This document shows positions 34,652-50,197 of a DNA stretch of 64,000 bases, one piece after another (the stretch's first letter is position 1; every line of letters begins with the position of its first letter). The notes below the pieces were generated by a model. That model did no database searches. It was not told the DNA's origin and worked only from the letters and a program-made list of their open reading frames with translations. The DNA is from a virus (Duplodnaviria > Caudoviricetes). Position numbers and translations under genes: made by a program. Location: positions 1 through 64,000 of IMG/VR virus record IMGVR_UViG_3300030376_001612; one strand, 5' to 3'.

Positions 34652-35001
34652 TGGAAAAAGAAGATTTTAAGAATATACAAGCACTATTGAATGGTGCACC
34701 TGATGATTATGAGATTGCATTATCTAATATTAAAAATATGAAACCTCATGAAATCTTTATACTATTACTTGGCAAAGACCTTGTAAGTGAGAAACGCGCT
34801 AATTTTATTAAAGAGTTTCCTGCAATAAATTGGCCTGAAGGTAAAGACTTTACTTATAGGGCTTTATATAAAAGATGTAAGAATATGCCACCTAAAGTAC
34901 AGGAGGTTTTTACAGATATAATATCTAGACAAATATACAATGGATATTTGTGTGAGACATTTGAATTTGTAGAAGAACTAAAAATAGAGATAAAATGGTA
35001 A
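34651..35001 (+). CDS. Hypothetical helical protein
   Basis: ORF track; translationally coupled. Confidence 0.6.
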   Translation: MEKEDFKNIQALLNGAPDDYEIALSNIKNMKPHEIFILLLGKDLVSEKRANFIKEFPAINWPEGKDFTYRALYKRCKNMPPKVQEVFTDIISRQIYNGYLCETFEFVEELKIEIKW

Positions 35002-36146
35002 GAGAATATTTATCTAAAGCAATTAAGACACTAATACTTGAGGAGCCCTTTTACGGGCTCTTTATTGTTGGTCTCAATAAAACATATAGAACAGACATAC
35101 CTACAGCAGGTGTAAGTCAAAATGGTATAGGAGTACAACTAGTAGTAAATCCAGAGTACCTTGAGAATCTTAATGAAGATCAAAGGAAAGGATTACTTAA
35201 ACATGAAGTTCTTCATATATCATTTGGTCACTTGCTTACAAGGAATCTCTATAGTGATAAGCAATTATTTAATATTGCTGCAGATATAGAGATTAACCAA
35301 TATATTACAGAACGTTGTTTGCCAGAAGGAGGATTAACATTAAATAGTTTTCCTGAACTTAATTTGCCGGCTAAAGCAGGTACTGATAAGTACTATGAAT
35401 TATTACAGCAAGCTAAGAAAGATAATACATCTCCATCTCTTGATAATTTATTAGGTCAAATGGATGGTAATAGTCAGTATTGTCATAATACATGGGATGA
35501 GTTTGATAATCTACCTGAGTCAGAAAAGAAACTGATTAAGAAACAAGTGGAGCATCAGATAAAAGAAGTGGCACAACAAACAGAAAAGAGAAGAGGAAAC
35601 ATACCAGGAGAATTGGCAGAGTTAATACGTAAATTATTAAATATTACTCCACCTAAATTCAATTGGAAAGCTTATCTAAAAAGATTTGTAGGTAACTCTA
35701 GTGTAATATATACTAAGAAGCTTAGAAGGAAGTATAACAAAAGGTATAGTGAAAACCCAGGTTTGAAGATTAAAACTAAAAACCACGTATGTGTTGGTGT
35801 AGATACTTCTGGCTCAGTATCAACTAATGAGTTGATAGAATTTATGAATGAAATAAACCACATGCATAAGACGGGTCATAAAATTACAGTGGTACAGTGT
35901 GATACACAGATCACATCTATTGAAGACTTTAATCCTAAAAAGGATTGGGGTATTAAAGGTAGAGGAGGGACAGACTTCCAACCGGTGATTGATCACTACA
36001 ACCAAAGTAATTATACAGCACTAATATATCTAACAGATGGTGAAGCTTATACTCCACAAAACTGTCCTAAGAACGCATTATGGGTTCATAGTAGTCAATG
36101 TAGAATAAATGAAGAGTTACCAGGATTAAAAATACAATTAAATTAA
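34995..36146 (+). CDS. Metallopeptidase-like + vWA protein (DUF2201 type)
   Basis: HEVLH, NIAADIEIN; MIDAS DTSGS, GRGGTDF, YLTDG. Confidence 0.85.
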   Translation: MVREYLSKAIKTLILEEPFYGLFIVGLNKTYRTDIPTAGVSQNGIGVQLVVNPEYLENLNEDQRKGLLKHEVLHISFGHLLTRNLYSDKQLFNIAADIEINQYITERCLPEGGLTLNSFPELNLPAKAGTDKYYELLQQAKKDNTSPSLDNLLGQMDGNSQYCHNTWDEFDNLPESEKKLIKKQVEHQIKEVAQQTEKRRGNIPGELAELIRKLLNITPPKFNWKAYLKRFVGNSSVIYTKKLRRKYNKRYSENPGLKIKTKNHVCVGVDTSGSVSTNELIEFMNEINHMHKTGHKITVVQCDTQITSIEDFNPKKDWGIKGRGGTDFQPVIDHYNQSNYTALIYLTDGEAYTPQNCPKNALWVHSSQCRINEELPGLKIQLN

Positions 36147-36152
36147 AATAAA

Positions 36153-37433
36153 ATGGCAGAAGTAAATTTAAATATAGATGAATTAAAAGGGTTTGTTAAT
36201 CACATGATAACAAACAATAGACATATAAGAAAAGAAGGTAAGAATCCTGTCTCAGTAGAAATACTTGGTGAATCAGGTATTGGTAAAACTTCTACGGTTA
36301 TAGAGCTTGCTCAGGATAATAACCTAGACTTTGTAAAATTGAATCTATCACAGATAGAAGAGATAGGTGACCTTGTAGGATTTCCTGTACGTCAGTTCCA
36401 AATGTACAAAGAAAAGCAAATACCTGTAAAGAGCAATAGTTCTGATTTACAAATGGTAACAGCAACACAAAGAGCTGGAGGCGCTAGTCTTGCTAACTTA
36501 AGTACTACAAACACAGTTACAAAAAAAGTTGGTATGTGGGTAGATGAGTTAGCTGTGCAAGAATATCTTAAGCAAGGTTATATGATGACAGGCAAAAATA
36601 GAATGTCTTACTGTGCACCTGAGTGGATTGCTGATAAGAAGAAAGGTGGTATACTATTGCTAGATGACTGGAACCGTGCTGATATGAGGTTTATACAAGC
36701 TGTAATGGAGTTGGTTGACAGACAACAATATATATCATGGACATTACCTGAGGACTGGCATATTATATTGACAGCAAATCCAGATAACGGTGATTACATG
36801 GTAAATAGTGTTGACCCAGCACAAAAGACTAGATATATTACAGCTAATCTTAAGTATGATATAAATGTATGGGCTAGATGGGCAGAAGAAGCAGGTATAG
36901 ATACAAGATGTATTAACTTCTTGTTGCTACATCCTGAACTTGTGACACAAGAAACTAATGCAAGATCTATTACAACGTTCTTTAATGCAATATCAAGCTT
37001 TGAAAAGTTTGAGGATAACTTAACATTGATACAGTTGATTGGAGAAGGTAGTGTAGGAGACGCATTTGCTTCAATGTTTACAACATTTATTAATAATAAG
37101 CTAGATAAACTTGTGACACCAATGGATCTGTTAACTCATGATAATGAAGAATATATTCTTGGAGAGTTAAAAGGCTGTATTGGTAATGGAGACACATATC
37201 GTGCTGATATTGCGTCTACATTAGCAACAAGATTTGCAAACTATGCTGTAGTATATTCTAAAGATAATACTATAAATGATAAAGTAACAAATAGAATTGA
37301 GTCACTTGTAACAAAAGATTACTTTACTAATGACTTAAAATATCTAATTGTTAGAACCATCTATAATGGTAATAAGCAAAAGTTTAGTAAGCTTATGATG
37401 AAACCTGAAGTAATTAAAATGACAATGAAATAA
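36153..37433 (+). CDS. MoxR-like AAA+ ATPase
   Basis: GESGIGKT, LLLDDWNR, ILTANP, DPAQKTR. Confidence 0.85.
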   Translation: MAEVNLNIDELKGFVNHMITNNRHIRKEGKNPVSVEILGESGIGKTSTVIELAQDNNLDFVKLNLSQIEEIGDLVGFPVRQFQMYKEKQIPVKSNSSDLQMVTATQRAGGASLANLSTTNTVTKKVGMWVDELAVQEYLKQGYMMTGKNRMSYCAPEWIADKKKGGILLLDDWNRADMRFIQAVMELVDRQQYISWTLPEDWHIILTANPDNGDYMVNSVDPAQKTRYITANLKYDINVWARWAEEAGIDTRCINFLLLHPELVTQETNARSITTFFNAISSFEKFEDNLTLIQLIGEGSVGDAFASMFTTFINNKLDKLVTPMDLLTHDNEEYILGELKGCIGNGDTYRADIASTLATRFANYAVVYSKDNTINDKVTNRIESLVTKDYFTNDLKYLIVRTIYNGNKQKFSKLMMKPEVIKMTMK

Positions 37434-37435
37434 TT

Positions 37436-38455
37436 ATGAGTAAATACATTTTTAAAACTGTTCCTAAAAATGTATTAGATCATCACAACTTAGCAGACAC
37501 TAGTAAATTACACTATGTGTCTGCTTATGGTGATCTAATGCCTGTTTATTTGGCACAGGATCCAACACTAAGAGATACGCTTGTAGAGAAACTTAAAAAA
37601 TCTAATACAAGTACACTTGTTGGACAGGGATACAAGAAAGCTTTTATAATACCAGACTGTCCTGCAAAACTAGACAGAATGAAAATGGCATTAAAAGAGC
37701 ATAAAATAACTATAACAAATGATATAGATATTGCAGATGTAATTGTGACACACAACAACTTGTCAGATAGTTATGAAAGCAGTGCAAATATTAATAGTAA
37801 AAAACTATTTGCTGCTTTATGGAACTATAATGCATACCATATACCCGGTACAGAAAAAAGCTTGGTTTATCAAACAGATAAAGATCAAGATAAGTATGGT
37901 GGTACTTGGTCATGGGATGATGAGGATACAGATAGTATATATGAAATGGATTACTTCACAGGGCTTGGATTAGAATTATCTAAGAAATATGATGAGGCAT
38001 TTCCATTTGTAGACATAGAAACTGTTCTAGAAGAATCATCAACAAGGCAAACTCTTACAAAAGAATTGCTAGACTTGTTAATATCACAACACCGTGCAGG
38101 TGGTGATGATAGAGAATTAGCATTAAAGCTATTACCAACAGTAGATTGTAATAAAAACCATCATTTTCTGTGGGAACTATCTCAACAGATTGGTCATGAT
38201 ATATACTATGAAAGAAGAAACAAAGACCTAGGTTACTGGGTAAGACATAGTAAAGTCAATGACTATATGGATATGAGTGCAGAACAAATGATTATTTGGT
38301 TAAAAGAAAATGATTTACTAACTTCAAACTCATTCAGATACTTAGAACCCATTGTAAGAAAAGAGATACAAATTCACAATAGAGAATTATATGTCTTTAA
38401 ATGTATGGTAAAACCTGAGTTTTCTGAATACTTAAAATTAAATACAAATGAATAA
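37436..38455 (+). CDS. Hypothetical protein (BRCT-like segment)
   Basis: KITITNDIDIADVIV; paralogous to next gene. Confidence 0.6.
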   Translation: MSKYIFKTVPKNVLDHHNLADTSKLHYVSAYGDLMPVYLAQDPTLRDTLVEKLKKSNTSTLVGQGYKKAFIIPDCPAKLDRMKMALKEHKITITNDIDIADVIVTHNNLSDSYESSANINSKKLFAALWNYNAYHIPGTEKSLVYQTDKDQDKYGGTWSWDDEDTDSIYEMDYFTGLGLELSKKYDEAFPFVDIETVLEESSTRQTLTKELLDLLISQHRAGGDDRELALKLLPTVDCNKNHHFLWELSQQIGHDIYYERRNKDLGYWVRHSKVNDYMDMSAEQMIIWLKENDLLTSNSFRYLEPIVRKEIQIHNRELYVFKCMVKPEFSEYLKLNTNE

Positions 38456-39659
38456 AGCATATGAATTAAAAATTAATAAAGTATCTGATCGTGTACAAAT
38501 AAAAGGATCAGTTAATAATATTGGCTATTGGATTGGAGAAAAGGTATCATGGAAAGATCCTGTTCACAGTATAGTAAAACTGGATATTGCAAGTGAGCCA
38601 GATATGATTGAAATCCAAAATGCTAAACTATATAGATATCCAAAACTTTCATTACCAAGAGTCAAAGTAGAAACTTTGAAAGAAAAGTATGATGTTAAAG
38701 TAGTTAGAGACAGTAATAAAGCAGACTATAGTATTGTATCTAACAAGATGATAGAAGATTTACTAACAGTAAGTTGGCGTTCATACTATAATAAAGAACT
38801 ACTTGGTTTATTTATTAAGTGTCTTGATGTATTCAAAGATAAAGATATGTATTCAAATCAGTTTTATGATAATATAAAGTCCTTCTATGAAAACATTGAG
38901 GATAATGATAGAATAGATATTAACGTTAGCCTAGGATGGAATAATGATAATACTCATTTAGAAACATTTTCTCAAGCTTGGGATAAAGCATATCAACAAT
39001 ACTACAAAGGAATAGAAAGAACATATCACTCTGATGTAATATTAGCAAATGAAAATGTAAGCGCATTTCAAAATTTACAAAAGGAAAAGCTAGTATTAGA
39101 TAAGTGTATTAATAGAATATGTAATGAAGATGCTCATGTAATAACTGAAGATGAAGTTATTACTACAATGCAGATGATAAATTCTGGAGATGAAACATCT
39201 CGTTCATTAGCTGTTGAGATGCTTGCAAATTGTAATGTTGAGGAGTGCTTTGATAAAGTTGCTTACATGTGGACATTTGGTTATGATACAATTAGGTATG
39301 CTACAAACTGGAATACTGTAAATGTGAAAGCATTGAAAGAACGTATGCTAGATGTTACACCTCAGCAGAGTCAGATACATCAAATATACATGTATGAACA
39401 TTTAATAAGGGCTCTTATAAAAGAACAATCTTTTACAGAATGGGCTTGGAATAAATTACAAGAGGATATATACAATAATGTTATTAAGAGTTATGGTTTG
39501 TCTAATAAGAACAAAGATCATGATAACGTTATAGATATAAATATTGCTGATATAAAACTATCAGATAAATATTCAAGCTGTATTGTAAAAGAAGAATCAG
39601 GTAAAGAAATCTTAGATGAGATTACTCAGCCTGATGGATTTGATGATTTACCATTTTAA
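38448..39659 (+). CDS. Hypothetical protein (BRCT-like segment, DDLPF tail)
   Basis: VKVVRDSNKADYSIV; ends GFDDLPF. Confidence 0.6.
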   Translation: MNKAYELKINKVSDRVQIKGSVNNIGYWIGEKVSWKDPVHSIVKLDIASEPDMIEIQNAKLYRYPKLSLPRVKVETLKEKYDVKVVRDSNKADYSIVSNKMIEDLLTVSWRSYYNKELLGLFIKCLDVFKDKDMYSNQFYDNIKSFYENIEDNDRIDINVSLGWNNDNTHLETFSQAWDKAYQQYYKGIERTYHSDVILANENVSAFQNLQKEKLVLDKCINRICNEDAHVITEDEVITTMQMINSGDETSRSLAVEMLANCNVEECFDKVAYMWTFGYDTIRYATNWNTVNVKALKERMLDVTPQQSQIHQIYMYEHLIRALIKEQSFTEWAWNKLQEDIYNNVIKSYGLSNKNKDHDNVIDINIADIKLSDKYSSCIVKEESGKEILDEITQPDGFDDLPF

Positions 39660-41997: not shown

Positions 41998-43995
41998 ATG
42001 CATATGAAACATTGGGTAATGGACTATGAAACCCTATCAAACTGCTTTGTTGCAGTATTTAAACACTATAAAACTGAAGAGCAAAAGGTGTTTGTAATAC
42101 ATGAACTGAGAGATGATAGAGATGCTTTCATTGAGTTCTTAATACAAAATATAAATAATAGAGAGTGGCACATTTCATTCAATGGCCTTGCCTTTGATGC
42201 ACAGGTCACTCATTATATAATAGATAATCATAAGGATTGGAGACACGGAACTGCTGATGAAGTTGCAAGAGCCATATATAGATATGCACAAAAAACTATA
42301 ACTGCTGCAAACAACAAACAGTTTTCAGAATATCCAATATGGAAAATGGTTATAGGGCAGATAGATATATTTAAAATGCATCACTGGGATAATCCTGCTA
42401 AGCGCTCTAGCTTGAAGTGGATTCAGTACAGTATGGATTGGCAAAATATTCTTGATATGCCTTTGTCTCATGAGACAGAAATAGAGACGCAAGAACAACT
42501 TGACACTATAATAGAATACTGTATAAATGATGTTGAGTCAACTAAAGAAATCTTTAATAGATCTAAATCTTTAGTAAGTTTACGTAAAACATTGACAAAA
42601 GAGTATGGTATTAATCTATTTAGCGCATCAGAACCAAGAATAAGTAAAGAACTATTTGGTTATTACTTATCTAGACTATTAAATATACCTAAAGGTGAAT
42701 TAAAAAAGATGAGAACTTATAGAGAAACTATAAAGTTCAAAGATATAATATTGCCTTATGTTAATTTTAAGTCTGCTGAGTTTAATGTTCTATTAGATAG
42801 ATTTAAACATGTTGAACTAGACCCATCTAACTTAAGAGGTGGTTTCAAGTACAACATAAACTATAAAGGGGTCAACACACACTTTGGTTTAGGTGGTGCA
42901 CATGGTGCACGTCAACCTGGGGTGTATGAATCAGATGAAGAACATATAATTATGTCTTCAGATGTTACATCATTCTACCCGAATCTTGTAATCAAGAACA
43001 AATGGTCACCAGGACACTTCCCTGCGGATGAGTTTTGTGACCAGTATGAATGGTTCTTCAAAGAAAGAAAGAAGATACCTAAGAGTAATCCTATGAACTA
43101 TGTTTATAAGATTATATTAAACTCAACATTTGGCTTGAGTAATGATATAAACAGTTTCTTTTATGATCCTGAGCTTTGTATGAAGATTACAGTAAATGGT
43201 CAACTAACGTTGATGATGCTGTATGAAATGATTATGGAAGCTATACCTGGGTCAATATCATTACTACAGAATACAGATGGTATAGAGATTAGAATACCAA
43301 GAGAACAAAAACAAAAGTATCTTGAGGTATGTGCAGAATGGGAAGAGATAACAAATCTACAACTTGAGCATGATGAGTATCAAAAGTTAGTACTTGGTGA
43401 TGTAAATAATTACATTGGGTTAAACAGCTTTATACAAGTACCTATTGATACATATAGAAGCATTAAACAAAAGAGTCCACATTATCTATTTAAAGTAGAT
43501 AAAGATAAATTCTACTATGCTCCTACAAAGCTCAAGGGTAGATTTGATTTTCACAACTTAATGTTGCATAAAAATAAATCTAAACTTATTATACCAAAAG
43601 CTATCTACTATTACTTTATATATGATATGTTACCAGAAGAATACTTGAATCAAAATAAAAACATCCTTGACTACTGCATAGGTGGTAAGTCAAAAGGTGA
43701 TTGGCAACAAGTTTCTAGAACAATAGTTAATGGTGAATTTCATGAAGAAAAGTTACAGAAGATAAATAGATATTATATATCAAAGACCGGTGTCAAGATT
43801 ATAAAAGTAAATAAGAATGACAATAGAGAAATACAATTAGAGTCCGGTAAATGGTTACAAACTATCTATAATAAGATGGAAATAGAACCTAAATGGGAAA
43901 ATTATAATATCAATAAATCTTATTATCTATCTGCTATAGAGCAAGAGATAAATAATATTCTTAAGGTATCAACAAGCCAGTTAGAATTATTTTAA
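41998..43995 (+). CDS. polB: DNA polymerase family B
   Basis: Exo DYET, FNG..FD, YCINDV; pol DVTSFYP, YKIILNSTFG, NTDG. Confidence 0.9.
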   Translation: MHMKHWVMDYETLSNCFVAVFKHYKTEEQKVFVIHELRDDRDAFIEFLIQNINNREWHISFNGLAFDAQVTHYIIDNHKDWRHGTADEVARAIYRYAQKTITAANNKQFSEYPIWKMVIGQIDIFKMHHWDNPAKRSSLKWIQYSMDWQNILDMPLSHETEIETQEQLDTIIEYCINDVESTKEIFNRSKSLVSLRKTLTKEYGINLFSASEPRISKELFGYYLSRLLNIPKGELKKMRTYRETIKFKDIILPYVNFKSAEFNVLLDRFKHVELDPSNLRGGFKYNINYKGVNTHFGLGGAHGARQPGVYESDEEHIIMSSDVTSFYPNLVIKNKWSPGHFPADEFCDQYEWFFKERKKIPKSNPMNYVYKIILNSTFGLSNDINSFFYDPELCMKITVNGQLTLMMLYEMIMEAIPGSISLLQNTDGIEIRIPREQKQKYLEVCAEWEEITNLQLEHDEYQKLVLGDVNNYIGLNSFIQVPIDTYRSIKQKSPHYLFKVDKDKFYYAPTKLKGRFDFHNLMLHKNKSKLIIPKAIYYYFIYDMLPEEYLNQNKNILDYCIGGKSKGDWQQVSRTIVNGEFHEEKLQKINRYYISKTGVKIIKVNKNDNREIQLESGKWLQTIYNKMEIEPKWENYNINKSYYLSAIEQEINNILKVSTSQLELF

Positions 43996-43997
43996 TT

Positions 43998-44195
43998 ATG
44001 AGTAAATACAAAGGACAGAAGTTCTTTAATGTTTGGTACATTCCGCATGATAAAATGTGGAGTGAACCAAACCCATCACTGTATAAAAAGTGGATGGGCG
44101 TTTGGGCACCCAATAAAAAGTCAGCTACAAAACAAGCTGAGGAAGACGGGTTTGTCAAATGGATTGAAGAAGAAAAACTAAATATTGAAAAATGA
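43998..44195 (+). CDS. Small hypothetical protein
   Basis: ORF track. Confidence 0.5.
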   Translation: MSKYKGQKFFNVWYIPHDKMWSEPNPSLYKKWMGVWAPNKKSATKQAEEDGFVKWIEEEKLNIEK

Positions 44196-45025
44196 TTAAG
44201 GTTCAAACAACAAAAACTCTAACCACAAAACCTAATAACAATAGTGCAAATTGCATAGCCCCTAATGTAATCTACGGATGCATGGGTGGCTGTGTGAACA
44301 CTTATTGTTATATGGCTAGATATAACGGTAAAAGAGTATACGTAAATAAAAACGTTGATCAAATATTCAAGTCTGTTGTTGAATGGGAAAAGACATTTGT
44401 AAAAGTCCCAGACCAACAAGACCCTATATATACAATGGTAGATGTTGCTTGTAACACAGATTTAGTTCTGATGCAAAGACATATGCCAGAGCCTTTACAT
44501 GATTATCTTAAGCGCTATGATGATCATCCTCAACTTAATAGTACAATGGCTACAAAGTATCCTAATCTCCTTAAACTGGATGTTAATCACTTTAATAAGA
44601 AACCCAGGGTAAGGGTAAGTCTAATGCCTCAGATATATTCTGATATACTTGAACCAAAGATGCAGAAAATATCAGGTAGAATAGTAGATATAGACCGGTT
44701 AAAAGACTTAGGATGGGAAGTCCACTGTAATTATAGTCCATTAATATTCTATCCAGGATGGAAAGAAGAGTACAATACACTATTTCGTGTAGTAAAAGAG
44801 ATTGCTGGAGTTAATAAGTGTGAGGTAATAGCATTAACTAATCACAGAAACCAAATGGCTAAGGCTACACCAGAAGCTCAAGAACTAATGAGAAGATCTT
44901 CTGAAATAAAAAATCACTCAGGTGTTATGAGGTATCCAATACAACATAAAACCAGATTGTTATCAGAATTTAAGGAGATTTACAAAAAATATTTTCCATT
45001 AAACACAATAAGATATATATTTTAG
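44192..45025 (+). CDS. splB: Spore photoproduct lyase-like radical SAM enzyme
   Basis: GCMGGCVNTYCY, ACNTD, ATK, RVRVSLMPQ, EP...R, NYSPLI..PGW..EY. Confidence 0.8.
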   Translation: MIKVQTTKTLTTKPNNNSANCIAPNVIYGCMGGCVNTYCYMARYNGKRVYVNKNVDQIFKSVVEWEKTFVKVPDQQDPIYTMVDVACNTDLVLMQRHMPEPLHDYLKRYDDHPQLNSTMATKYPNLLKLDVNHFNKKPRVRVSLMPQIYSDILEPKMQKISGRIVDIDRLKDLGWEVHCNYSPLIFYPGWKEEYNTLFRVVKEIAGVNKCEVIALTNHRNQMAKATPEAQELMRRSSEIKNHSGVMRYPIQHKTRLLSEFKEIYKKYFPLNTIRYIF

Positions 45026-45077: not shown

Positions 45078-45968
45078 ATGGGATACACAAAACCAAAAGA
45101 GACTACCAGACAATATCTGGAGTCACAACCTTTACCAACACATGGTAAAAGCTATACAGTCATACCCCACGCTAGGGTAATTGACACAACACTTAAACTG
45201 TTGAATGACAGTGGATTTAGTGTAACAAAAGAGATGTACAGAGCTAATATGAATGCAAATGTAGCACAGGGTATATACCACATTACTCCTCTAGCTACAT
45301 CAGATGAAAAGGTCAGTAAAGAAACTGAACTAGGGATGATGTTTGCTTGGACTAACTCATATGATAAGTCTACAAGATTTCAGTGCTCTATTGGAGGATA
45401 CGTTATGGTATGCTACAATGGTACATGTAGTGGAGATCTTGCAAACTTTGCACGTAAACACACAGGTTCAGCAGACATTGATATAAATACTCAGATATCA
45501 AGCCAGATAAAAAGAGCTGAGTTAATATTTAGAAAGATTATAGATGACAGAGACTTCTTAAGAAATACAGATATGTCTATGGAAGCACAAGCAAAAATGC
45601 TTGGTATGCTTTACTGTGATTTAGAACTTCTAGATAATACACAAATGAGTATTGCTAAGTCTGAGATGGATAAGCCCTCTTTTAATTACAACTGTAATCC
45701 TGAGACGGCATGGACTTTCTATAATCATGTTACACATGCATTAAAAAAGAGTCATCCACGTACATGGTTAAAAGATACACAGAGATTTCATGATTACATT
45801 ACCTCTTTACTTAAAGGTAATAATATAAACACTGAAAAAACTCCAGTATTATACAATCCTAACAATAAGATATCAGAAATGCAAATAGATGATACTGATT
45901 GGTTAGAGATACCAAATACTGTAGATGTAGATATTGTGCAGAACAGAGTGGAAAACATGCTTAGATGA
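45078..45968 (+). CDS. DUF932-like protein
   Basis: YTVIPH, NSYDKS, VCYNG, RKHT, WTFYNHVTHALK. Confidence 0.7.
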   Translation: MGYTKPKETTRQYLESQPLPTHGKSYTVIPHARVIDTTLKLLNDSGFSVTKEMYRANMNANVAQGIYHITPLATSDEKVSKETELGMMFAWTNSYDKSTRFQCSIGGYVMVCYNGTCSGDLANFARKHTGSADIDINTQISSQIKRAELIFRKIIDDRDFLRNTDMSMEAQAKMLGMLYCDLELLDNTQMSIAKSEMDKPSFNYNCNPETAWTFYNHVTHALKKSHPRTWLKDTQRFHDYITSLLKGNNINTEKTPVLYNPNNKISEMQIDDTDWLEIPNTVDVDIVQNRVENMLR

Positions 45969-46865: not shown

Positions 46866-46892
46866 AAAAAAGGGCCCATGAAGGCCCTTCTT
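46866..46892. terminator. Bidirectional terminator between convergent blocks
   Basis: AAAAAAGGGCC-CATGAA-GGCCCTTCTT. Confidence 0.7.
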
Positions 46893-47001: not shown

Positions 47002-48012
47002 TTAGAATGTTGATAATGCGGCTCTTTTCCATGTATTAGTTGCAGTGCACACATAAATATGTCCTGCATCTATTCTTATTTGACCTGGAGTCCCTGCTGC
47101 AGTTGCACTAGATGGCGCTGCATTTAATGCATTAAGATTAAACTCTTTAGCATTAACGGATCCTGCAGTGTCTAAAGGTAAATCTGCTTCATTATGTATA
47201 AACTGTGCTGTCCCTGTTGCTGTTCCATTATACTTATGATAGATACCTTTGTAATTTACCAATGTCTCACTATCCTTTTTATAGTTAAGGTATATCTGAT
47301 ATGCATCATTTATTGTAGCTGCTGCATTAAGATCTATCTCGTAGTATCCAGAATAAACATTATTAATATTATTGTCTGCATTACCTATATTAATAGTGTT
47401 ATGGTGAGCAATTATGAAAGCAGTAGTATCCGTACCTGTTCCTTTTATAGAGACTTGATTACTATGACCGTATAGACTACTTACTTGTTTATTACCAACA
47501 CCGTCCATCTCTGCAATATTGATCTGGCCAATAACAAAGTAGGCATTACCACTTCCCTTAAATTCACTCTTAACCTGTTGTGCAACAAGTTGAGGAAATC
47601 CACCTGAGTATGCAGTTTCAACTTCTAAACTAGCCATTCGTAAGTACTGATTCGTACCACTTGCCTGAGAACCGTGAAACTGAACTTTCTCGTTAAGTGC
47701 TATCTGGATACTGTTATCACTCGTTCTCTTTGCAAACGTAACTAATGACGTATTCTCTACTGGATTAAACTGTGCTGTTGAATCACCTATAACTCGTAAT
47801 CTATTAAAGTCTGAAGCTGTTTCTAGTACATTTGCAACTGCACTCGCTAGATCTGTAACTCTAACTAACTTTGCTTCTGGATTGTGTACAGGAGTTCCTG
47901 GTCTGTTTCCTTTATCAATACCAATCGGTATATAATCTTTAGCTTTTGGTACGCCACCAGTAACAAACTGATTTTTGTTAAACATGCTGGCTAAATCTTG
48001 AAATATATTCAT
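47002..48012 (-). CDS. Virion fibre protein
   Basis: C-terminal APSSATAAGTPGQIRID...YVCTATNTWKRAAL; N-terminus shared with 48032. Confidence 0.7.
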   Translation of the reverse strand: MNIFQDLASMFNKNQFVTGGVPKAKDYIPIGIDKGNRPGTPVHNPEAKLVRVTDLASAVANVLETASDFNRLRVIGDSTAQFNPVENTSLVTFAKRTSDNSIQIALNEKVQFHGSQASGTNQYLRMASLEVETAYSGGFPQLVAQQVKSEFKGSGNAYFVIGQINIAEMDGVGNKQVSSLYGHSNQVSIKGTGTDTTAFIIAHHNTINIGNADNNINNVYSGYYEIDLNAAATINDAYQIYLNYKKDSETLVNYKGIYHKYNGTATGTAQFIHNEADLPLDTAGSVNAKEFNLNALNAAPSSATAAGTPGQIRIDAGHIYVCTATNTWKRAALSTF

Positions 48013-48031
48013 TTTATTATTTTTAAATTGT

Positions 48032-50197
48032 TTATCCTGCTGATACTTTTAATGTACCATTATCATTCCATAGTACTCCTTTTGAGACAGGGTCACTTGT
48101 AGGTAAGTCCTGCATTACTACTCTTCCGTCAGTAACTTTTAAGTTTGAAAATCTACCTTGACTTTCTATTTCATCTTGAAAGAATAACTCATATTTTCCT
48201 GATACTTGCGCTGAAGAATTTCCTGAGAATACATAATCACATCCTGCTGTATATGTCTGTCCACTATTTTGAAACTTTGCAAATGTTGTGTCTTTACCTG
48301 CCCAAAGTAAGTTAAATGGAGGTCTGCCCATTGTACTTGAAGTTAAAGTAGTATCTCTAAAATATACATATACTGTTGATGGTAATACTACATCATCCAT
48401 GGCAGCATTTGGTGCACTATTTCGTGCATCAATAACTCTTAACCCTAAAGTACCATTTCCTGGTGATGATCCATTACCGTCTATCTTTATACTTACTGGT
48501 AGTCTAAGAGACTTTAAAGTTCCTATGTCAGTTGTATATATTTGCAAATTGGTGCTAAGAAAACTTGAGCCACTATAATTAGCTTTATTTATATCAGCTG
48601 TACTTGGTTCTACATTTACTCTAAGACCTGATCCTTGGCTACCTGGTATGCCCAAACCTGCATCATAACCTGAATCTACTGCTGGAGAATATTGCTCAGC
48701 ATATAAATTCCAAGGTAATCCACCTTTAGTTCCTGCTGCAGCACTTTGCCTTTTAAAGAAAATATCTTGTGGACCATTATATGTTTGATTAATATCAGGT
48801 GATCCTGTTGTCTTGTTAGTAATATGAATTGATATGTTATATCTATTACCTGTGTCACTACTATCTGAACCAAAATAATCTATTGTACTATGCATGCATG
48901 ATTCTGTACTTTCTAAAGTAGGACCAATTTTCATAAATCCATTTTCTACAAAGACTTGATCAGCAGCCCAGCCATCTGGCATATTTTTAAACTTCAATTC
49001 TGTTTTACCAGCTGATGTGTACTGCATGCTTACTTCTTGAGATGGTCCCATCAAAAGCTTAGAAGTATTAGTAAATGTAATGTCATCATTAGCACTAATT
49101 GCTATATCGGTTCCACCTGTGGTGTTACCAACTGCTAGTATCTCAGCTAAAGTATCTTGGGTAAGAAGTTGAGTATCTACGTATGCCTTAATAGATTGTT
49201 GAGTTGCTAAGTGAGTGGCAGAATTACTAACCATATTATCCTCATCTTTAATTGCTGTTCCACTTATTGCTGGAGCATCTAATTTTATTCCTCCTGTACC
49301 AGTTGAATGAATATAAGTATAATCACCTTCAGCAATATGATAAATAAGTAATTTATTTCCATCACCAAACTTAGCCTTAATATTGTTTTTATACTGTATA
49401 TCTTTTGTAGCTACAGAGTAACCTAATCCACTATCAACTCTAAAGTACTCATTTTGGCCAGAACCTTTAAGTTTTACATCTCCTTCTGATCTAAGAGTTA
49501 AATCGCTGTTTCTATCATTATGTATTTCTAGTTCACCAGAGGTTTTATTTTCAATTAATATACCACCTTTACTCTCTATACTTAGACCACCAGATCCTGC
49601 TTTAATATTAGCTCCACTGTCGTGGTATATTTCAAGATCAAGGCTATTAGAATTTGAAGAGTTACCAAAAATTAAACGTGAATGCTCAGGAAATTGTGTA
49701 TATACATCAGGATTACCTGTAACAGCCATTGAGCTATTCAAATAAAAATATGTAGTGGAGCTTGAATCACCATCACCATTGTCACCTTGGAATATTAAAT
49801 CTCTACCATCATCTTTATGTCTTATAATTAAGTTACCTGCACCGTTAAATCCTCCACCTTCAATGTAACTATTACTGCCGTCATGATATATTTGTAAATC
49901 ACCGCCTGCACCAAATTTAGCTTTACTTGTATCTGAAAAAGTAACATCATCTCCTGCAGTAACTACTATGTCTTTACCTTCTGTAGTATTTCCTACAACA
50001 AGAACTTCTTTTAAAGGCTGATCTGTAAAGTCTTTGATTTTTTTCATGGTAACAATCTTGACTTCTGGATATTTAATAATTGAGCCAGGTCTATTACCTT
50101 TATCTATTCCTACTGCTAGATAATCTTTAGCTTTCAAAGCACCATTTATAAATTGGTTCTTTGTAAACATTTGTGTGAAATCTTGGAAAAAATTCAT
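48032..50197 (-). CDS. Virion fibre protein
   Basis: Repeated KAKFG.G.DLQIYHDG units; LPTSDP..KGVLWNDNGTLKVS tip. Confidence 0.75.
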   Translation of the reverse strand: MNFFQDFTQMFTKNQFINGALKAKDYLAVGIDKGNRPGSIIKYPEVKIVTMKKIKDFTDQPLKEVLVVGNTTEGKDIVVTAGDDVTFSDTSKAKFGAGGDLQIYHDGSNSYIEGGGFNGAGNLIIRHKDDGRDLIFQGDNGDGDSSSTTYFYLNSSMAVTGNPDVYTQFPEHSRLIFGNSSNSNSLDLEIYHDSGANIKAGSGGLSIESKGGILIENKTSGELEIHNDRNSDLTLRSEGDVKLKGSGQNEYFRVDSGLGYSVATKDIQYKNNIKAKFGDGNKLLIYHIAEGDYTYIHSTGTGGIKLDAPAISGTAIKDEDNMVSNSATHLATQQSIKAYVDTQLLTQDTLAEILAVGNTTGGTDIAISANDDITFTNTSKLLMGPSQEVSMQYTSAGKTELKFKNMPDGWAADQVFVENGFMKIGPTLESTESCMHSTIDYFGSDSSDTGNRYNISIHITNKTTGSPDINQTYNGPQDIFFKRQSAAAGTKGGLPWNLYAEQYSPAVDSGYDAGLGIPGSQGSGLRVNVEPSTADINKANYSGSSFLSTNLQIYTTDIGTLKSLRLPVSIKIDGNGSSPGNGTLGLRVIDARNSAPNAAMDDVVLPSTVYVYFRDTTLTSSTMGRPPFNLLWAGKDTTFAKFQNSGQTYTAGCDYVFSGNSSAQVSGKYELFFQDEIESQGRFSNLKVTDGRVVMQDLPTSDPVSKGVLWNDNGTLKVSAG

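Follow-up and report, generated by a model that had tools for sequence, protein, structure and literature searches.

In the 64,000-nucleotide stretch of viral DNA analyzed here (the window), a gene that directly follows a DNA polymerase gene encodes a 277-aa protein, which a first-pass annotation had taken for a phage homolog of spore photoproduct lyase (SPL). This raises the question of whether the phage carries a lyase that reverses thymine dimers in its own DNA, and of whether such an enzyme could hold its [4Fe-4S] cluster on a CX3CX4C motif in place of the canonical CX3CX2C. Alternatively, the protein may combine the fold of SPL with a different substrate in DNA, it may tailor a modified thymine, or its altered motif may have cost it the cluster altogether. 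We examined the family, predicted fold, active-site residues, cluster motif, distribution, and surroundings of the gene with these alternatives in mind.

The SPL-like gene and its neighbors

The window is part of an IMG/VR virus record of 109,954 bp that is ~95% complete and has a G+C content of 32%. The SPL-like open reading frame begins with ATG, has an in-frame stop immediately 5' of it, and ends a plus-strand block that also includes genes for a metallopeptidase/VWA protein, an AAA ATPase, and a PD-(D/E)XK exonuclease. Its neighbors, and the residues that we discuss below, are listed in Table 1. The first-pass annotation had placed the gene next to PolB, and we agree: along with its profile match, the translation of the upstream gene contains three readable PolB signature motifs (DVTSFYPN, KIILNSTFG, and NTDG). 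A scan for promoters and terminators around the SPL-like gene found sites no more numerous than in shuffled sequence, with the exception of a hairpin at 46867-46892.

Table 1. Coordinates in the window of the SPL-like gene, its neighbors, and the residues assigned by comparison with SPL
Feature	Position	Strand	Basis
Gene for 277-aa short SPL-family radical SAM protein	44192..45025	+	PF20903, E 5.5e-18; AlphaFold pLDDT 95.5; VIA Z 26.3 to 4fhc residues 62-341
Upstream neighbor (context, outside the enzyme): DNA polymerase (phrog_1252) with PolB-type motifs	41998..43995	+	Match to phrog_1252 'DNA polymerase'
Downstream neighbor: DUF932 protein	45078..45968	+	Recurs beside SPL-like genes in divergent phages
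Ser18 = Ser79, in the loop holding the 3'-thymine of the lesion	44243..44245	+	Ser in 123/128
Predicted cluster-binding loop C30-M-G-G-C34-V-N-T-Y-C39, CX3CX4C	44279..44308	+	Three Cys invariant in 128/128 nonredundant family members
Two added residues, V35-N36, right after Cys2; Tyr38 still directly before Cys3	44294..44299	+	Alignment gaps; insert consensus [RMV]-[ND]
Y38-C39-Y40 = Tyr96-Cys97-Tyr98 of Geobacillus SPL (SAM contact, radical relay)	44303..44311	+	Alignments; PMC3467042
C87-N-T-D90: C87 = Cys140 (H-atom donor); T89/D90 = Ser142/Asp143 (SAM amino group)	44450..44461	+	Asp in 127/128, Glu in the other
K122-Y123 = Lys174-Tyr175 (SAM carboxylate, cluster environment)	44555..44560	+	Profile and family alignments
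R139-V-R141-V-S143: R141 = Arg193 (O4 of 5'-dihydrothymine); S143 = Ser195 (SAM)	44606..44620	+	Profile and family alignments
E211 = Glu268 (lesion contact); T216 at the Arg273 position (phosphate/SAM contact), not kept	44822..44839	+	Thr in 116/128
Short beta-hairpin, residues 238-248; tip K240-N-H-S-G244 has no aromatic	44903..44935	+	DSSP; pLDDT 82-84
R274-Y275: Y275 = Tyr339 (H-bonds O4 and N3 of 5'-dihydrothymine)	45011..45016	+	Tyr in 124/128

An SPL-family protein lacking the N-terminal domain

We compared the 277-aa protein with profile, structure, and sequence collections. It matched PF20903, the SPL family, at 65.4 bits against a gathering threshold of 27, with its residues 5-275 aligned to profile positions 63-336 of 338. 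The closest NCBIfam model was TIGR03886, 'SPL family protein' (142.9 bits, E 1.3e-41), at a score below the equivalog cut-off of 437.55 and with the N-terminal ~61 positions of the profile unmatched, and TIGR04070, the equivalog model for true SplB, gave 56.4 bits (E 2.3e-15) against a cut-off of 400. The single sequence matched PDB entry 4FHC with HMMER at E 1.4e-10, and a 50-sequence family profile matched it at E 1.8e-32 over SPL residues 64-339. A PHROGs search with the protein returned no match. The nearest relatives were all PF20903 proteins, and not the radical SAM enzymes from outside the SPL family that the first-pass annotation had named as the finding that would speak against it.

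The predicted fold led to the same family. An AlphaFold2 model built on the family alignment had a pLDDT of 95.5 and a pTM of 0.92, and Foldseek searches with this model placed six SPL entries on top (E ~1e-15 to 1e-16), with NifB as the next family at 3e-5. When the model was compared with SPL residues 62-341 by VIA-align, 265 of 277 residues superimposed with a Z of 26.3 and an rmsd of 2.4 Å; the runner-up, RlmN, reached a Z of 14. The model has the partial (beta/alpha)6 TIM barrel of the radical SAM superfamily, in which it matches SPL, RlmN, PFL-AE, viperin, and NifB. The alpha/beta domain at the N terminus of SPL (four strands and three helices in the first ~61 residues) is absent from the model, and the 277-aa protein is thus predicted to be an SPL-fold enzyme that starts ~61 residues into SPL.

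We conclude that the 277-aa protein is a homolog of SPL by sequence, profile, and predicted fold, and that it is a minimal, N-terminally shortened member of the family. The earlier claim of homology is upheld with a qualification, as the protein lies nearer to TIGR03886 than to SplB, scores below the cut-offs of both models, and has no N-terminal domain, no Arg273, and no aromatic residue at the hairpin tip. That these proteins resemble SPL is not a new finding; JGI names already label them 'spore photoproduct lyase'.

We also considered a split gene, in which a 65-aa open reading frame at 43998-44195, overlapping the start of the SPL-like gene in ATGA, would supply the missing N-terminal domain. 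We rejected this possibility because an in-frame stop lies directly upstream, because the 65-aa frame shows no similarity to the N termini of 73 long forms of the family or to the frame upstream of the gene for a sister protein (P0122), and because its position is not conserved: of the 160 viral loci searched, only 5 have the frame, and there it lies elsewhere.

Conservation of active-site and substrate-contact residues

Residue equivalences were taken from a family-profile alignment to SPL and from an alignment of 128 nonredundant family sequences, and the roles of the SPL residues are those known from its crystal structures (PMC3467042). C30, C34, and C39 correspond to Cys90, Cys94, and Cys97 of SPL. 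Further along, the first-pass annotation had likened an ACNTD sequence to the ACTSD motif that carries the hydrogen donor cysteine, and HMMER pairs these two motifs, with Cys140 lying inside ACTSD. ACNTD comprises residues 86-90 (44447-44461), and the C87 codon is TGT at 44450-44452. A cysteine occupies the C87 position in 23 of 27 CX3CX4C sequences and in 44 of 60 short CX3CX2C sequences (67 of 87 short forms). At SPL-equivalent positions other than that of Cys140, the residue is kept in most or nearly all of the 128 sequences; Tyr38 and Tyr40 are present in most of them, and the lesion contacts S18, R141, E211, and Y275 are each kept in at least 95%. Since Arg193, Glu268, and Tyr339, together with the Ser79 loop, hydrogen bond both thymine rings of the photoproduct, we regard the retention of their equivalents as the strongest argument for a thymine-dimer-type substrate.

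Residues that contact the DNA backbone or open the helix in SPL are kept less well. The position of Lys309, which contacts a phosphate in SPL, is hydrophobic in the alignment, and a different conserved lysine, K253, lies nearby. The hairpin is ~five residues shorter than that of SPL and has no Tyr305-type aromatic wedge for base flipping; within it, R247 and Y248 are near-invariant and invariant, respectively, and more distant family members keep a YG or FG at the tip. With SPL residues 1-61 absent, Arg273 replaced by Thr, and no wedge on the hairpin, DNA recognition may differ from that of SPL.

A conserved CX3CX4C motif that alternates with CX3CX2C

Reading the DNA places C-MGG-C-VNTY-C-Y exactly at 44279-44311, where the first reading had put it, with codons TGC for C30 (44279-44281), TGT for C34 (44291-44293), TGT for C39 (44306-44308), and Y40 at 44309-44311. 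That the motif is two residues longer than the canonical one was likewise borne out, as HMMER pairs CMGGCVNTYCY with CMGHC--HYCY of Geobacillus SPL (4fhc). The protein therefore departs from the canonical CX3CX2C radical SAM motif, while its three invariant cysteines still lie on the same loop.

This spacing is neither chance nor a sequencing error, since all 120 closest homologs and all 80 closest IMG/VR loci share the pattern C-x-G-G-C-x-x-[ST]-Y-C. Across 53 aligned genes, the motif's Cys, Gly, Val, Thr, and Tyr are all invariant and their codons vary synonymously, and the gene-wide median dN/dS is 0.08 at a dS of ~1.6. Judged by this gene-wide median (~0.08), purifying selection acts strongly on the two residues added after Cys2.

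In the wider family, the spacing is mixed. Many divergent short forms have CX3CX4C, others have the canonical CX3CX2C, including the 50%-identical sister P0122, and two clusters have CX3CX3C. The CX3CX4C forms keep [ST]-Tyr before Cys3, and Gly-Gly precedes Cys2 in 20 of 27 CX3CX4C sequences versus 3 of 101 CX3CX2C sequences. On a maximum-likelihood tree computed with the motif removed from the alignment, the spacing state changes at least nine times, and a single CX3CX4C clade was rejected (delta lnL 159.6, AU p 0.0014, for a group defined after the first tree had been seen). The two-residue insertion, as reconstructed from these sequences, has been gained or lost several times, and the two spacings look interchangeable. 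Since closely related proteins whose active sites agree in all other respects may have either CX3CX4C or CX3CX2C, we argue that both should bind the cluster and be functionally equivalent.

Abundance in marine phages and occurrence in bacteria

We found more than 1,100 close homologs in marine metagenomes, including Tara, on contigs of up to 125 kb, and among the 120 close homologs listed nearly all are 277 aa long. CX3CX4C proteins number more than 1,000 among marine phage proteins. Relatives from the lineage of the window are encoded on at least 555 IMG/VR contigs, at least 570 further contigs match a profile of the divergent form, and marine metagenomes of 12 studies contain near-identical DNA. 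Among 1.84 billion cluster representatives searched, only 178 clusters matched (E <= 1e-3). Among the 50,697 deposited phage genomes of INPHARED, the 277-aa protein had no match even at E 1, and a divergent family member used as the query gave one weak match, to a faecal phage contig. With no member in a deposited phage genome, the SPL-like subfamily is currently missed by annotation pipelines and model systems.

Cys1 lies near residue 30 in the viral forms, all of which are short, and near residue 95 in the long TIGR03886-type proteins of bacteria, whose motif reads CAMACAYC and which are found in Curtobacterium, Microbacterium, Myxococcus, Azospirillum, Methylobacterium, Bryobacteraceae, Isosphaeraceae, Trueperaceae, and others. 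About half of these long forms have Glu at the Cys140-equivalent position, and their genes have no conserved neighbor, except for a second SPL-family paralog in a few genomes. Unexpectedly, short CX3CX4C genes are also chromosomal in Legionella sp. D16C41, Candidatus Odyssella, Paracaedibacteraceae, Rickettsiaceae, a Neisseria MAG, a Burkholderiales MAG, and Cesiribacter, where they sit among ordinary cellular genes and not in prophages. Four aspects of the family appear undescribed: the short viral subfamily, its abundance in the absence of a member in deposited phage genomes, its conserved CX3CX4C loop, and the repeated switching between that loop and CX3CX2C.

Neighboring genes for replication, recombination, and repair

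The gene order PolB, SPL-like gene, DUF932 is conserved in the lineage of the window, and at 63 of 80 close loci a polymerase lies upstream of the SPL-like gene. The commonest neighbors at 34 divergent viral loci encode DnaB helicase, DUF932, other helicases, dNMP kinase, PolA, PD-(D/E)XK, ERF, UDG, and Endo VII. The surroundings of viral SPL-like genes are thus a replication, recombination, and repair setting. Neither a photolyase nor a T4 endonuclease V gene was found in the virus record, and so we found no other gene for the reversal of UV lesions. Searches of the genome for flavodoxin, 2Fe-2S ferredoxin, A-type Fe-S assembly protein, and alpha/beta SASP also came back empty.

Proposed function and competing explanations

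The reading that we favor, and consider somewhat probable, is that the gene encodes an SPL-type lyase that reverses thymine dimers independently of light and is expressed together with the replication genes; the phage probably has a DNA repair of its own that needs no light. This reading rests on homology, predicted fold, gene context, purifying selection, and the conservation of residues that serve catalysis or contact the substrate in SPL, and from these we infer that CX3CX4C binds the cluster, which lesion is the substrate, and when the enzyme acts.

The mechanism would run as follows. A [4Fe-4S] cluster would be ligated by C30, C34, and C39 on a loop that has two more residues than usual, and its fourth iron would bind SAM, with further SAM contacts from T89/D90, K122, and S143. 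The 5'-deoxyadenosyl radical would then take a hydrogen from C6 of a flipped-out dimer of the 5-thyminyl-5,6-dihydrothymine type, held in place by S18, R141, E211, and Y275. The methylene bridge of the dimer would break, C87 would give back a hydrogen atom, and Y40 and Y38 would relay the radical back so that SAM is regenerated. Fe-S assembly and the reductant would be supplied by the host. As the gene lies in a replication and recombination block directly after PolB, the enzyme would, with no need of light, rid the injected phage DNA of thymine dimers that block replication, before they are reached by the phage PolB. In Curtobacterium, which does not sporulate, a bacterial SPL-family protein is induced by UV (PMC12029717), which shows, at the least, that the family responds to UV outside spores.

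Several points count against a thymine-dimer lyase. The scores fall far below the NCBIfam equivalog cut-offs (143 versus 437.55 and 56 versus 400), and the hosts live in oxic surface water, a setting in which radical SAM enzymes are vulnerable. Nor does the phage genome itself have a gene for a flavodoxin, a ferredoxin, or an Fe-S assembly protein. We know of no report of spore photoproduct (SP) in hydrated phage particles, and a literature search returned nothing relevant on the photoproduct in capsids or on SPL in phages or viromes.

The main rival to a thymine-dimer lyase is a radical SAM enzyme with the SPL fold whose substrate in DNA is a different one, such as a crosslink or some other pyrimidine lesion, or DNA that is single-stranded or replicating in place of duplex SP. 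The missing N-terminal domain, Arg273, and aromatic hairpin tip are what such an enzyme might show, and the scores under both SPL cut-offs and the lack of proof that SP forms in hydrated capsids point the same way. The Glu in place of Cys140 in about half of the bacterial long forms further implies that the wider family need not be isofunctional. Even so, we think this explanation unlikely: the residues that hydrogen bond the thymine rings (the Ser79 loop, Arg193, Glu268, and Tyr339) are kept almost throughout, as would hardly be expected if the substrate were unrelated, and the Cys/Tyr relay that is particular to the SPL mechanism is largely kept as well.

The other two explanations are both poorly supported. 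The first-pass annotation had offered base modification as its alternative, and the protein might indeed be a DNA hypermodification enzyme that tailors a modified thymine in phage DNA, as does gp53 of Pseudomonas phage M6. That protein is the sole characterized phage radical SAM enzyme acting on DNA and models on SPL (PMC8989533), and the SPL-like gene lies in a DNA metabolism block. However, the similarity to gp53 is marginal (an hhalign probability of 88% over 53 columns only), and gp53 has no PF20903 match. The genome has no ThyA-type dUMP hydroxymethylase, no ThyX, and no second radical SAM gene, neither a PLP enzyme, a 5-hmdU kinase, nor an aGPT-Pplase is among the 25 neighbor families listed for the 34 divergent viral loci, and the bacterial copies are stand-alone chromosomal genes. 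The suggestion is weakened accordingly, and we consider it improbable. Least probable of all is that the insertion abolishes cluster binding and leaves a non-catalytic DNA-lesion binder or a decaying gene; our literature search did find no characterized radical SAM enzyme with CX3CX4C, but the three cysteines, the aromatic residue before Cys3, and the SAM-contact residues are kept under a dN/dS of 0.08, the loop is modeled at a pLDDT of ~92, and sister sequences that share the rest of the active site can have either spacing.

The idea of a thymine-dimer lyase can be extended to the ecology of these phages, although we do so tentatively and think the extension more doubtful than not. As the first-pass annotation had suggested, the packed DNA of free marine phage particles might accumulate SP-type dimers in sunlight; a large group of as yet uncultured phages might reverse them in the dark with a stripped-down lyase, and CX3CX4C might be a new and fully functional cluster signature that exchanges freely with CX3CX2C.

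Significance and comparison with known systems

Sunlight is a main cause of phage decay in surface seawater, and to our knowledge the recovery of phage infectivity has so far been credited to host photolyases and excision repair. If the phage enzyme is a thymine-dimer lyase, phages would guard their own genomes against a lesion class that has so far been tied to dry or spore DNA, and SP-type lesions may form in capsids. The lineage that encodes it is very abundant and is represented by the at least 555 IMG/VR contigs and the near-identical DNA in metagenomes of 12 studies. In addition, the 277-aa form, lacking the N-terminal domain, would be a minimal scaffold for SPL chemistry, and the sister pairs that differ by two residues between Cys2 and Cys3 offer radical SAM enzymology a natural comparison.

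Among the closest known systems is SplB (Geobacillus thermodenitrificans SPL, PDB 4FHC/4FHD; Bacillus subtilis SplB; TIGR04070). SplB and the 277-aa protein share the partial TIM-barrel radical SAM fold (Z 26.3), the Cys triad on the loop before helix alpha4', the Ser79 loop, the C-terminal beta-hairpin, and the equivalents of Tyr96/Tyr98, Cys140, Ser142/Asp143, Lys174, Arg193, Ser195, Glu268, and Tyr339. The two differ in that identity is ~20%, CX3CX4C stands in place of CX3CX2C, Thr replaces Arg273, and the hairpin is shorter and lacks the Tyr305 wedge; the 277-aa form, unlike SplB, is also encoded by a phage of non-sporulating marine hosts. The nearest named family, TIGR03886 of non-spore-forming bacteria, has the same core and conserved residues and likewise occurs as a stand-alone gene, with one UV-induced member (PMC12029717). 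Its proteins differ from the 277-aa form in being long, with Cys1 near residue 95 and the canonical CAMACAYC, and the function of TIGR03886 is itself putative.

Among phage enzymes, M6 gp53, a radical SAM N-alpha-glycinylthymine isomerase (PMC8989533), is distantly SPL-like and acts on thymine derivatives in DNA. Unlike the 277-aa protein, it is 480 aa long, has a canonical CTVGCAFC motif, falls outside PF20903, and lies in a cluster of kinase, aGPT-Pplase, and PLP genes that is absent around the SPL-like gene.

For the motif, our literature search found no paper on CX3CX4C (CxxxCxxxxC) spacing in a radical SAM enzyme, and an insertion between Cys2 and Cys3 was not found among the known radical SAM motif variants. 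Catalogued variants include HmdB (CX5CX2C), QueE (CX14CX2C), ThiC (CX2CX4C), and PhnJ (CX2CX21CX5C) (PMC4389238), all of which use three cysteines at non-standard spacing for a SAM-binding [4Fe-4S] cluster, as is predicted for the 277-aa protein. In HmdB and QueE, whose motifs are N-terminal or canonical in position, the change falls between Cys1 and Cys2 and leaves the C-x-aromatic-C half intact, whereas in the 277-aa protein the insertion falls between Cys2 and Cys3 within a fold that is otherwise canonical.

Variation in the cluster motif and at the H-donor position

In two clusters of relatives, P0130 and P0140, the spacing is an intermediate CX3CX3C, with the motifs CNGGCKNYC and CQGNCKSYC. 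The protein of one cluster is 243 aa long, where 277 aa or more is usual, and that of the other is a fragment of 85 aa. In the family alignment of 128 non-redundant relatives, the column of window residue C87, which corresponds to the H-donor Cys140 of spore photoproduct lyase (SPL), is occupied by Glu in 20 of the 41 long and bacterial forms, and viral short forms mostly retain Cys there.

Genomic context of the viral SPL-like gene

The SPL-like gene is followed directly by a DUF932 gene in 61 of the 80 closest IMG/VR loci, and DUF932 is also the second most frequent neighbor family around the 34 divergent viral homologues (6 of 149 neighbor ORFs). The two genes may be functionally linked, or they may belong to a common module. 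Upstream, the block 5' of the polymerase gene keeps its synteny in most of the close loci; its 339-aa and 403-aa proteins are without annotation. The 65-aa ORF at the SPL-like start has relatives in only five related phage loci, at differing positions; its behavior is that of a small gene, mobile or accessory. The hairpin is probably a terminator at which the plus- and minus-strand blocks converge.

Features around the SPL-like gene and in bacterial homologue loci (L-numbers)
Feature	Position	Remarks
DUF2201 metallopeptidase/VWA protein and AAA ATPase, then 339-aa and 403-aa proteins	window 34995-39659	phrog_1314, phrog_1297
65-aa ORF	window 43998-44195	ATGA overlap with SPL start
DUF932 gene	window 45078-45968	immediately 3' of SPL-like gene
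GC-rich hairpin, then T-run	window 46867-46892	between plus-strand replication block and minus-strand tail-fiber-like genes
Tail-fiber-like genes	window 47002-50197	minus strand
Second SPL-family paralogue	L181:4632-5726, L189:6812-7951, L191:6812-7924, L227:4674-5789	

SPL-family genes in bacterial genomes

Short CX3CX4C SPL-like genes also occur on bacterial chromosomes (genome contigs, loci L166-L173 and L176), in Legionella sp. D16C41, Ca. Odyssella thessalonicensis, Paracaedibacteraceae and Cesiribacter, as well as in Rickettsiaceae, Neisseria and Burkholderiales MAGs, where they are flanked by ordinary cellular genes, such as those for SelO, SAM synthetase, MscL and Usp. Bacteria associated with amoebae make up several of the taxa listed. 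Genomes of Trueperaceae, Acidobacteriaceae, Bryobacteraceae and Motilibacter carry, in tandem with the long TIGR03886-type gene, a second SPL-family paralogue, which is highly divergent and has the motif CPAHCQYC.
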